From Callorhinchus milii (lineage: Eukaryota): DNA of 64,000 nt. A program made the position numbers and the translations under genes. This document shows positions 43,595-48,039 of this stretch, one piece after another; within the stretch, counting starts at the first letter, position 1, and every line of letters begins with the position of its first letter. Location: positions 86,368,001-86,432,000 of the forward strand of contig NW_024704742.1 in the NCBI RefSeq assembly GCF_018977255.1. The letters run 5' to 3'. Below the pieces are notes generated by a model. It made no database searches and was not told where the DNA came from. It saw only the letters and a list, made by a program, of their open reading frames with translations.

Positions 43595-45794
43595 CTGAAA
43601 AATACACATATGCATCCATCACTTATGAATTCATAAAATTCTCAGTGCATTCTGTCACCACGGTGATCAGCTGTCTGTGAGTATTTAAGTCCATTATTAA
43701 TCCGTGCTGGATTCCCAACATTTTGTCACCATCGGTCTACAGGCTGTTACAAATCGGGAGTCCTCCAGACAGAAAGGCACTATATAAACATTAACCTGTA
43801 TTGTATTGAGTTTGAAACTCATTTGAAATGAGAACAAAGTGTAAATGTAGCCTAGGGCAGGGCTGTCTTACTCCTTTGTGGGCAATTTTGCGGAATTTCT
43901 TAATAAAGAAATCCAGGCGTTTGTGACGCTGACTCTCAGGAACTTTGTCCTACCTTAAACTATTTTCAGAGCAGGGTCCACTCCTTCACTCCGCACTATG
44001 TATTTCCAGTTACCAGAAGACCCCTCCGCTGTTCCCGCAAGTTTGTGGCGTCTATGTGGTTCAAACTAAAGGAGCCTATTCTGCGAGGCGTTTTATTACA
44101 ACTGCACGGGATACAGGCGAGAGAGTCTTAACCGCTGAATCCTACTCTACGGCGAATTCAGCAGTGATTCACTCAGCGGGCATGCCCGGTTGGAAAAAAA
44201 TGTGGTCGTCCACATGGTGAAAAACTTTGTGTTAGAAGTTGATTTATAACAGCATGTGGTGTGTTGAGGGACAAGGGAATACAGGGTACTAAGGAGCGGA
44301 TGGGGAATGTGTAAACACCGGCATGGACTGGTTGGGCTGAATTACCCATTTCCCTGAAGTATAATCTATGTAAATCTATGCTCACCGCAGATACTCACAG
44401 TGCAAAACAGGTGGCCGATTCTGAATAAAACACACTGCCCACCTGCCACTCACTCTTTCTGACTTTTGGCACAATTAAATGATTTTAATTTTCTGCTGAC
44501 CCAGGGCTCAACAGCTGTGATCAGATCCAATAGTTTGAAGATCACAAAGGGACATTTGCACTAAGGTCACTTATTTTCTCTATTTTCCCCCCAAAATTAA
44601 ATGTGCTTCACTGTGCTTTACAAAGAGAAACAAAACATTTATTAAAAACCTAATCGCTTCAGGAAAAAAATGGTTTTCTCTTGCCAATTACCTCTCCTCC
44701 TAAAGGCCCCCACTCTTGCTAGATACAATTCTACAGGAACCTGATGTTTGCTGCACGTTTCACCCTTCTTTATTTGTGAATGTCGGGGTGTGGGGTGGGG
44801 GTGGGGTGGCGGGGTCTGAAATTTCCAACTCGCTCCAGCCTTACCTGATATTCTTAGCATCTGAGAGTAATCCAGAATTTATCAAATTTTTTCTTGTAAA
44901 TTTTAACTGAGACTGAATTCAACAATCAATTTACCAAATTCTGGATGACCTAAGATGATACATAAATGGGAGTAAATCTGGAGCCAGGTGGAATTTCTCC
45001 CCATGTTGGCAAGTATTCAACAGTAAATCCCGATAAGAAAAGCCTCATGAGTTACAAAGTGAACTTGCTCAATGGGCAAGTAGTTTTCCAGGTTCCAGAG
45101 GCAAAAGTTACAGGAGGCTTATGATATTGGGATTTAACTTAATAATAATACTTGAATTTGATATAGCAGCTACAGCCTCAAAACTCTTCAAAATGCTTAA
45201 GAATTTTTCTATAAAGTGTGGTGACTCTGTATTTGTTCCCAAACATAGCAGCCAATATGAGAAACTCCCTTTTCTTCCATGGGATCTTTAACCTCCAGCT
45301 GATCAAGCAGACAGAAGCTCGGTTTAACATCTCATCTGAACTTACACTGATCACTGTAGAGACATAGAGAAAAGTGCTATCATTAGACATCTGTGTATAT
45401 CAGACCCTATTGTCTGCCAGGGTTGTCAAGCATGTAATAACACTGCAAGGACTGTGTTGGAAAATCAACACTAACCACAGCCTCCATCACCCTATTTAAA
45501 TGCTAACAATAATGTGGCTATGTTGACAAGCTGGATTCTGATTTACAAAATAGGCTGAATTCTGGCTGATGTTTGCAGCTGATGTTTTGCTGAGAAATCT
45601 AGAAATAATCCTTGATGGAAAGTTAAAGGCTGTGGTGTAGACATGAAGTAATAAAATAATGACTAACACCACCACAAACAGAATTGAATAATAAGCTTAG
45701 GGTTTGGTTTCCATTATGTGTCAGCATCACATAATGGCAACCCTGCTACTGATAAGCCTCATGCTGACGTTCTCCAAAAGTTTCCAGAAACTAT

Positions 45795-45995
45795 AATAAT
45801 AATAATAATAATGATCCTTGCATTTGATATAGCGCTTTTCATGTATTCTCGACATCTCAAAGCGCTTCACAGAATAGACTGTAAAGTGAATTGACTGTAT
45901 ATTTGTGGGCGAAACGCAGCAGCCAATTGCATGCAGCAGTGGATTCAAAATGACCAATTTATTAATGTTTTTTGTCTTGGAGGGATTGGAGTAAG
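45795..45995 (-). mobile_element. Headless SINE 3' portion fused to the WEE2 retrocopy
   Basis: Begins at cttactcca, includes the body and (TTA)n tail; same strand as the retrocopy. Confidence 0.9.
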
Positions 45996-47079
45996 CTGGT
46001 TCATCAGGTTCGAGTCTTTCCTGAGAGCACTGCACAGAGATGGCTTCAGTAGGCACCACAGTTGAAGCTCACTGACCAATTGTGTCTGCCTCCCACCAAC
46101 CGTTGGTTCTTCGTCCCTGGCAGGAGGTCCTTCTTCCAAGGGTGGAGGACTCTGTGAGGTCTGTCCGAGGGAAGGCCTGCAACAGCTGAGCTTTCATCAG
46201 CTCCCTTTCTAACATGGCAGTCCTGAAGCATTCTACGTTGAACTCCTTACGGAGCTGTGCTGCTGATTTTCCCATTGTTCTGCGAAGTGTGGGATGTTTG
46301 GTGAGGGCAGCTGCTGAAAGCCTCGCAATTGGATTTGAATGAACCATCAACTTCAATAGACCGTAAAATTCATGTGACAACTGCAAAGGTATTGTGGGAA
46401 GGTTGCTATTTCTGATGTAATGCCAAGCCATGTCATTGTGAGGCAGTCTTTCCACTCCTGCAGCCAAGGTGATGGTCAGACTCAGGGCAAAAATATCCGC
46501 TTTGGGCAAATTAGAATAGTCCTCTTGTAATATCTCATTGGCTAAGAAGCGGCAGTCTCCTTCCTCCACTTGGATTTGAAATTGAGGTCACATGGCCAAG
46601 GTCACCTATTTTGTGTAGTATATTTGTAAACAAAACACCATCTTCGTCAATATCACTGTCTTCTTCCAAGCATCCAGACTTAGCATCAATCATTTTTTTA
46701 CAAATGAAAATATTACTTGGCTTCACGTCCATAAGGACCAGGCCAGAATTGTGGACGTATTTCAGGCCAATGGATACTTGCAGCAGAATCTCCTTCAATT
46801 CTCCTTCAGAAAGTGAAGTTCCTTTCTGCAGGTTCTCCATCACTATGTCTGCCAGGCTGCCACCATTGCAGTACTCATTCTGAATGAGCATGTGATCATC
46901 CTCTGCCCATGCCGAGTAGTAACGCGCCACATGGGGGTGATGTCCCAGCACAGCATGTGCATACACTTCACACAGCGCTATCTGTTCATCAGTTGACCCA
47001 GACAGAGGTCTTTTCAACCGCTTAATGGCATAGAGACAGCCATCCAGACGCTTGACACATTTATGCACAGCACCAAACT
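45996..47079 (-). pseudogene. WEE2: 5'-truncated processed pseudogene of a WEE-family kinase, WEE2/WEE1B-like, in a MAMDC2 intron
   Basis: Uninterrupted kinase subdomains ([67 protein letters not shown]) through the C-terminal RLVGG..SVSF stop at 46046-46048, with no introns. Frameshifts near 46570 and within 46110-46190; catalytic loop reads LMDVKPSN instead of HMDIKPSN. HHPHV and ANEILQEDY favour WEE2 over WEE1 (from recall). Confidence 0.88.
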
Positions 47080-48039
47080 ATTAAGAAATTTCACAATCTT
47101 GAGGATCAAATAACAAAGATGGCTTTTTGCTGCAATAACCCAGTAACTAATTCTTGAAAATATCAAGACAAGTTGACAAGCAGATTTGTTGCCACACAAA
47201 TACTTTCTAAACAGCATCAGGGCTTCTCGGTTACTTAGAGTGAAAGACTGGTTGGAACTCGTCAACTCTCATTTTGATAGCTCCTGTGAAGCTTGCAAAA
47301 CACTTCAGCAATCCCCATTACAGCATTTGCAATGGAAATTCACAGTCAGTTTGGAGCACTTTGAATGAATAAAATTTGCAGATCCAGGTCTCAAATAGGA
47401 TTTGAATGCAGACAATTGATCCCTTCCCTAATACATCAGACCTCAGCACTGTTAGATCCAGAATACTGAAAGTAATACTTCATTTTGACTCCCAGTTCTA
47501 AAAATCAGGTCACAATTGTGGGTGGGAGAGTCAAAGTAGGCAAAAACTTCAGCAGCAATATTCTAGGTGTTTTCACAATGCTTAGGACAGATGCAACATT
47601 TATGACAACCTTTGTACTTACAGTATTGACATGATGCCCAAAATGTTTCATTGAATCCTGTTGGCTAAAATATGCCTTGTTACTAACACTTGTAACCTGT
47701 TCTGCAACTATAATAAGCAACCCCATTGTAATAAGGTAAACCTCACACAAGTCATATCAGTTGGGACCATACATTCAATATTACTTATGCAAAGTATAAG
47801 TTACTTCAAACTTAGGTAAATATATTATTTATACAGATCAGACTTATGTGAGTTTTATTGTACAGATGAAAAGTTCATTAATGTCAGTGACCAATGCCTG
47901 TGGGATCTCTCCGCAGTGTACAATTGAAACAGGTGATGTAGTGAGATGAAATGTTGATTCTGTAGAATGTAAATTTGACCGTAGATAAAATTTTAACACA
48001 CTAAGCTTCAGGATAATCTGCAGGACAATAAAATATTAC

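Follow-up and report, generated by a model that had tools for sequence, protein, structure and literature searches.

Eel UnaL2, a long interspersed element (LINE) of the L2 clade, is said to mobilise the short interspersed element (SINE) UnaSINE1 through a 3' tail that is common to both. Further examples of shared tails are described for ZfL2-1/-2 of zebrafish (PMC4176376) and for CmiSINE and L2-2_CM of the elephant shark, Callorhinchus milii (PMC5499810). Zebrafish L2 elements need their cognate 3' stem-loop (PMC4176376). The distinction between stringent and relaxed LINEs is summarised in PMC3747384, and stringent LINEs (L2, CR1) are considered a poor source of processed pseudogenes, given that they require a 3' tail of their own (PMC3747384, PMC7245038). 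Here, we describe a composite insertion in a stretch of 64,000 nucleotides (nt) from C. milii (assembly GCF_018977255.1, contig NW_024704742.1, positions 86,368,001 to 86,432,000 of the forward strand; hereafter the window), in which an intronless copy of the kinase gene WEE2 passes, on the minus strand, into a SINE. We consider it likely that window positions 47079-45793 are a single retroposed copy of the spliced WEE2 messenger RNA (mRNA) of the same genome, copied through the SINE tail by an L2-type LINE.

This locus has much in common with SINE mobilisation by stringent L2-clade LINEs: a 3' stem-loop followed by a short tandem repeat, no poly(A), 5' truncation, and short target repeats of variable length. 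However, the WEE2 template is a spliced polymerase II host mRNA, the tail lies inside its 3' untranslated region (UTR), and the polymerase III head of the SINE is missing. In mammals, Alu and B1 elements embedded in 3'UTRs are over-represented among the parent genes of processed pseudogenes (PMC5199112). Like the WEE2 copies, mammalian L1 pseudogenes are intronless, 5'-truncated, dead copies of germline-expressed genes, and a 3'UTR SINE has been proposed to aid the access of the LINE. They nevertheless end in the poly(A) of the mRNA, and the Alu effect is a statistical one, whereas the WEE2 copies end at the SINE tail. Small nucleolar RNAs joined to an RTE tail have also been retroposed, as snoRTEs (PMC4233971, citing Schmitz et al. 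2008). In this case too, a host RNA was made mobile by the tail of a stringent LINE, although snoRTEs are small non-coding RNAs forming a true repeat family, while WEE2 is a protein-coding mRNA whose source is apparently a functional gene. Transduction by SVA or L1 elements carries host exons. Chimeric retrocopies of the U6-L1 type arise by template switching, and such an origin was proposed for PittSINE (PMC5729268). Both of these processes give a composite of host and retroposon sequence in one event, as at the present locus; in the WEE2 case, the junction with the SINE was present in the gene beforehand, which makes a template switch unnecessary, and the priming site is provided by the SINE, on the 3' side of the host part. 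No published family of mRNA retrocopies ending at a 3'UTR SINE tail was found in the literature searched, most subscription journals being outside its coverage.

The window copy and its parent gene

We searched the DNA of the own genome with window positions 45996-47090 as the query. The 31 matches comprised the window itself, 8 exon pieces of a parent gene, 2 weak matches to a paralogue on C17, and 20 pieces spread over 19 further intronless loci. The parent WEE2 gene, represented by 8 exon-sized matches at C5:50561163-50570293, has GT-AG borders throughout. Once joined, its exons give a stop-free translation that is exactly residues 112-566 of a public 566-amino-acid (aa) protein (P0001), and the parent kinase is intact, unlike that of the window copy. 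The last exon of the parent runs from the stop codon through 50 nt of UTR into a headless SINE, by the same junction as in the window copy, and then to (TTA)n; the sequence that comes after (TTA)n is unrelated to the sequence that comes after the window copy.

Because the parent carries the SINE at the identical junction, the SINE was already in the WEE2 mRNA before copying, and an origin in two steps, a retrocopy first and a SINE joining it later, is excluded by this shared junction. An earlier analysis made from the letters of the window alone (the sequence-only reading) had left two routes open, a switch of template between two RNAs or a parent 3'UTR that already bore the SINE and thereby licensed the mRNA for L2. 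The C5 gene bears out the second, since its junction lies 50 nt after the stop; the spacing had been put at about 50 nt and is exactly 50 nt in the window copy and the parent alike. Alignment to the parent locus also reveals the loss of introns, the parent itself being split by them, and neither the post-SINE sequence of the parent nor any poly(A) is present below window position 45788.

Evidence for the transcription of the parent came from run X1, which was treated as RNA on the ground of a spliced contig; stretches that X1 left uncovered were given no weight. This contig of 1700 nt, with 0 mismatches to the parent, joins the last three exons (joints 1372/3040 and 3186/3942, ends CT..AC). 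It stops at position 1144 of the parent locus (L013:1144), about 20 nt inside the parent SINE, and such a break would be expected from the assembly of a repeat with 300,000 copies. As it leads from coding exons into the SINE, it speaks for the licensing route as well. A second X1 contig (L013:982-592) extends from the 3' part of the SINE into at least 360 nt of downstream sequence, and the X1 depth is 0 in all parent intron bins but one. The parent is therefore transcribed and spliced, with a UTR that includes the SINE. Transcription probably continues past the SINE tail, in which case priming would be internal to the mRNA.

In the window, the coding segment is collinear with the 8 parent exons, so that 7 introns are gone. 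It begins at Phe223, the F of the glycine loop (GSGE/FGAV; translation from 47077), and is devoid of residues 1-222. Its translation matches the Pfam Pkinase domain with an E-value of 2e-27 in the first half and of 3.7e-05 in the second half. Among solved structures, the best match is WEE2 (5vdk, 229 bits), with WEE1 at 220 bits and MYT1 at 63 bits. Among the top 120 protein matches listed, all entries named by family are WEE2 or wee1-like kinase 2, and the top one, 94% identical, is a 566-aa wee1-like protein kinase 2-A of C. milii (public source). The description of an intronless WEE2-like segment truncated in the middle of the glycine loop, already given from the letters alone, agrees with the collinear exons and with these matches.

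Compared with the parent, 2 nt are deleted after 46574 and 1 nt after 46152, which makes two frameshifts. The His of the catalytic loop has been replaced by Leu, and an intact kinase open reading frame with His-x-Asp is absent from the window copy. Judged from the frameshifts and the His-to-Leu change that disable it, this copy is a dead pseudogene. The stop codon equivalent to that of the parent lies at 46048-46046 and precedes the UTR (46045-45996). An open frame ending at 46069 was considered as the true C-terminus and rejected, as it corresponds to a frame-shifted reading.

The pseudogene has also entered the public record. Over 82% of the query, the pseudogene translation is matched at 100% identity by a 327-aa model (P0002, "WEE2 oocyte meiosis inhibiting kinase"). 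In this model, an invented intron bypasses a frameshift, and the N- and C-terminal ends are unrelated and added on; an annotation pipeline took the window pseudogene (45788-47081) for a WEE2 gene. Separately, two exon-sized pieces at G000:C17:7776133-7777452, with 73-78% nt identity to the WEE2 copy, probably belong to a WEE1 paralogue, and no retrocopies of this paralogue turned up in the own-genome search made with the WEE2 copy.

The SINE part belongs to a family that is frequent in the window, where the core motif has 13 matches in 64 kb against 0 expected from shuffles. Full-length members in the window have transfer RNA (tRNA) heads, with 4 Rfam tRNA matches, 2 of them called tRNA-Ala by ARAGORN. 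CmiSINEs of the elephant shark are described with a tRNA-Ala head, a CORE body and about 303,000 copies, and with a tail 78.6% similar to L2-2_CM (PMC5499810); the label CmiSINE is used here by match to this description and not by alignment to a Repbase consensus. In an alignment of 8 SINE copies from the window (4 of them full-length), the SINE of the WEE2 copy matches only the 3' two-thirds. Homology begins at 45995, about 130 nt of the SINE head being absent, and the tRNA-Ala head with the polymerase III boxes is missing from both the window copy and the SINE of the parent. Local SINE alignments span mRNA positions 1427-1628, with homology to the family in body and tail and a short tandem repeat at the end. 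Set against the SINE of the parent, the window copy has lost 17 nt (after 45939) and gained 3 nt (45967-45965). In the window copy, an A-run is missing from the UTR/SINE junction and from the 3' end alike; the direct passage into a headless SINE, with no poly(A) at the junction, had been read correctly from the sequence and is confirmed by the alignment. The coordinates of all parts are collected in Table 1.

Table 1. Parts of the WEE2 retrocopy in the window, with coordinates counted from the first letter of the 64,000-nt stretch
Feature	Position	Strand	Remark
Upstream ATAGTTT, putative target-site duplication	47075..47081	-	last 5 nt are also the first match to the parent mRNA
Intronless, 5'-truncated WEE2 coding segment	46046..47079	-	equals coding sequence (CDS) nt 665-1701 of the 566-aa parent protein
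WEE2 3'UTR, 50 nt, stop codon to SINE	45996..46045	-	collinear with the last exon of the parent
Headless SINE body, tRNA-Ala / CORE family, CmiSINE (SINE2-1_CM/SINE2B-1_CM)	45815..45995	-	family name from PMC5499810
Tail stem-loop	45831..45866	-	8-bp outer stem, internal loop, inner stem decayed to 4 bp
Terminal microsatellite TCA(TTA)6T	45793..45814	-	end of the retrocopy, without poly(A)
Downstream ATAGTTT	45788..45794	-	period of the tail extends into its first 2 nt

The family of twenty copies and its source

Together with the 19 other intronless loci, the window copy forms a family of 20. A 121-nt query made of the UTR/SINE junction matched 20 of 20 candidates, namely the window, the parent and 18 other loci; the nineteenth other copy, L004, has lost the junction part through an internal deletion. 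The 5' ends of the 20 copies fall at 19 different positions of the mRNA, from CDS nt 475 to 17 nt past the stop, with an excess of short copies. At the 3' side, all 20 copies finish in the SINE microsatellite (2-9 TTA units), an A-run is found in none of them (0/20), and none carries the parent sequence located 3' of the SINE. Only L006 and L007 have common flanks, 97-98% identical over 400 nt on each side, and they form an inverted duplicate pair. The remaining flank matches are partial and 73-90% identical, as interspersed repeats would give. Because the flanks are unrelated except for L006 and L007, the 20 copies represent 19 independent insertions, one of them later duplicated. From these copies, the retroposition of WEE2 is a recurrent process and not as a single accident.

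The two longest members, L004 (G000:C5:51887879-51891528) and L016 (G000:C2:43371000-43374500), have lost internal parts, so that coding sequence abuts the UTR or the SINE tail. At the deletion junctions, we noted a 5-nt microhomology (TGAAG) in L016 and, by eye, a GAC common to both sides in L004. These deletions could be jumps of the reverse transcriptase (RT) within the mRNA template, or later genomic deletions.

We then considered which source gave rise to the copies. From the parent, 19 of the 20 copies lie at a Kimura two-parameter (K2P) distance of 0.025-0.078; L016 was misaligned in the projection onto the mRNA (K2P 0.19) and left out of this range. The maximum-likelihood tree was built with the parent and 18 copies, and L004 and L016, from which most of the SINE is absent, were omitted from the tree and from the counts of SINE sites; read directly, L016 has the T of the parent at site 1517. 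The tree is comb-shaped, with the parent on a branch of 0.010, followed by L003, L008, L017 and L011 and then by an older, poorly resolved cluster (bootstraps 4-50), which includes the window copy on a terminal branch of about 0.042. The differences common to several copies are nested. Most copies depart from the parent at 7 SINE sites, and at 5 of these they have retained the consensus state; it follows that the parent changed after shedding them. Most simply, these patterns suggest that one evolving master, the WEE2 gene itself, shed copies repeatedly over a long period. As a rough estimate, the copies would span 15-75 million years (Myr) at the rate of 1.0-1.1e-3 per site per Myr given in PMC5499810, and the slower rate also quoted there would make them several times older.

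One pair of sites weighs against such a single source. Sites 1574-1575 of the mRNA, which lie in the inner stem of the SINE hairpin (parent locus L013 ~1008-1009), are CG in the SINE consensus, TG in 13 older copies, CG again in 4 younger copies and CA in L008 and the parent. On a single source lineage, this pattern needs a reversal, or else a second source existed. The older wave seems to have had a source state that is foreign to the present gene, because independent decay of a CpG should produce a mixture of TG and CA. The copies, or their older wave, might thus descend from a separate source, whether an intronless master retrocopy, a lost paralogue or a divergent allele. Besides the T at site 1574 in the 13 older copies, against C in the consensus, the younger copies and the parent, the weak bootstraps of the older cluster are in favour of this possibility. 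However, among the copies in the genome, none has both the length and the integrity to be the progenitor of the rest (the internal deletions of L004 and L016 are private to them), the headless copies have no known promoter, the comb of the tree ends at the parent, and the odd site is a CpG. We therefore regard a separate source as unlikely, and the WEE2 gene itself as the better candidate.

The junction bears on a second alternative, in which the RT started on a free SINE RNA and jumped to the WEE2 mRNA during one insertion. Tandems that may be chimeras of this kind do exist. At 63420-63600 (-) and 37480-37660 (+) of the window, an RT-bearing L2 3' end (stem-loop and (TTG)n) is directly followed by a 5'-truncated CmiSINE that extends to (TTA)n, and at L015 the (TTA)n of a WEE2-SINE copy is directly followed by a piece of SINE tail of at least 60 nt. 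Such tandems could result from SINE insertion into tail microsatellites, or from a template switch of the RT from SINE RNA onto a tail-bearing RNA. For the window copy, a template switch is excluded, as the identical UTR/SINE junction pre-exists in the intron-bearing parent gene and is common to 18 other copies, and as an RNA contig crosses it.

An ordinary processed pseudogene of the L1 type, primed on poly(A), whose 3' end was lost later or beside which a SINE was inserted later, is hardly credible either. L1-type retrocopies are the textbook case, but nothing specific to this family points to one. All 20 copies stop at the SINE microsatellite without an A-run, no copy includes the post-SINE sequence of the parent although the RNA contigs include that region, and the parent has the SINE at the identical junction. 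As for a DNA-level (segmental) duplication of one retrocopy in place of repeated retroposition, it is true of the inverted pair L006/L007 with its nearly identical flanks but can be dismissed with near certainty for the family, since the other 18 copies differ in their 5' truncation point and have unrelated flanks.

Priming at the SINE tail and the edges of the insert

A retroposed copy of the spliced WEE2 mRNA, made through its SINE tail, calls for a LINE that recognises this tail. In the window, LINE fragments with RVT_1 and Exo_endo_phos_2 domains end in a stem-loop like that of the SINE, followed by (TTG)n; the stem-loops of LINE and SINE are about 85% identical, as read by eye and not computed. 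The folds of the two tails have the same architecture, with -25.5 kcal/mol for the LINE (z -4.35) and -19.4 kcal/mol for a full-length SINE (z -2.40).

We infer that the copying was the work of an L2 enzyme, which initiated within the mRNA, and that the copies were inherited owing to expression in the oocyte. In the proposed sequence of events, the LINE protein would bind the SINE stem-loop inside the WEE2 mRNA and prime on (UUA)n, ignoring the downstream UTR and the poly(A). Copying would proceed upstream into the coding region and stop early, with 5' truncation as the outcome, and the end of the complementary DNA would be joined at a short microhomology (AGTTT). As every WEE2 copy ends at the SINE tail, priming appears to have taken place at the SINE instead of at poly(A). 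On this account, the same gene has been copied at least 19 independent times, and its mRNA has acted as a polymerase II-transcribed, non-autonomous retroposon of low copy number. WEE2 is an oocyte kinase in other vertebrates, and expression in oocytes, as in those species, would account for the entry of the copies into the germ line.

The sequence-only reading had proposed a 7-bp target-site duplication around the whole composite. The repeat is indeed present, ATAGTTT (AAACTAT on the plus strand) being found at both outer edges of the insert, but its value as a target-site duplication is limited by its overlap with the mRNA and the tail. Five of its 7 nt, AGTTT (47079-47075), are parent mRNA sequence at the truncation point, that is, a microhomology at the 5' junction, and its edges are ambiguous because the AT of the downstream copy continues the period of the tail. 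Among mismatched pairs of flanks from the family, a repeat of at least 7 nt occurs in 10 of 342 with loose windows and in 5 of 342 when it has to abut both junctions. On its own, the 7-bp repeat is therefore modest evidence (null rate of about 1.5-3%). Across the family, abutting repeats of at least 4 nt are present in 13 of 19 copies, compared with 33% of mismatched pairs (binomial P 0.002). For the most part, the 7-bp repeat is explained equally well by microhomology to the mRNA and to the tail, and it would also fit a short duplication of the target site, joined by way of microhomology. Short target duplications joined in this way are known for L2-type insertions. The single-event origin of the composite is deduced from the structure of the parent and not from the 7-bp repeat.

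Several observations, in addition to the CpG pattern given above, weigh against copying through the SINE tail by an L2-type LINE. At the edges, the target-site repeats of the family are short, reaching at least 6 nt in only 2 of 19 copies, and the 7-mer of the window shares bases with the tail as well as with the mRNA. In the window copy, the stem-loop has decayed (z -0.04), and in the present parent it is weakened (z -0.66), which makes its present-day competence, as predicted from folding, doubtful. Moreover, (TTG)n is the terminal repeat of the L2 copies in the window, while the SINE has (TTA)n, and a partner LINE with (TTA)n was not sought. Lastly, the RNA evidence consists of assembled contigs, none of which bridges the whole SINE or fixes the strand of the mRNA and the point where it ends; near L013:592, at the end of the downstream contig, no poly(A) signal was seen.

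Possible extension to other genes

Among C. milii mRNAs, 104 + 34 BLAST hits of CmiSINE/SacSINE are reported, all in 3'UTRs (PMC5499810). It is conceivable, although we advance it only tentatively, that in this L2-dominated genome L2 accepts as a template any germline-expressed mRNA whose 3'UTR holds a sense CmiSINE/SacSINE tail, with internal priming at the tail. If this were true, the insertion of a SINE into a 3'UTR would be the main gate to the birth of retrocopies and retrogenes in lineages without a relaxed L1. WEE2 would then be only the first visible case, and the gene itself a long-lived master of a retroposon family driven by polymerase II.

For WEE2 itself, the family would provide a natural demonstration that a SINE tail in a 3'UTR turns a host mRNA into a repeated substrate, and that copying begins at this tail and not at poly(A). 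It suggests a testable rule for the origin of retrocopies in cartilaginous fishes and in other genomes poor in active L1. In addition, its insertions would form a dated series that goes back to one known source gene, and assays of L2 would gain a natural substrate. Regarding the background of retrocopies in the own genome, Pfam scans gave 0 matches for PF02800 (GAPDH C-terminal) and 37 for PF00160, including one long single piece with stop codons; such scans miss split exons, as the 0 matches of PF02800 show, and are too weak to serve as a background control.

Elsewhere in the window, a CT-rich low-complexity tract of about 1.4 kb (15175-16634, plus strand) contains long Ser/Leu open frames in three frames.

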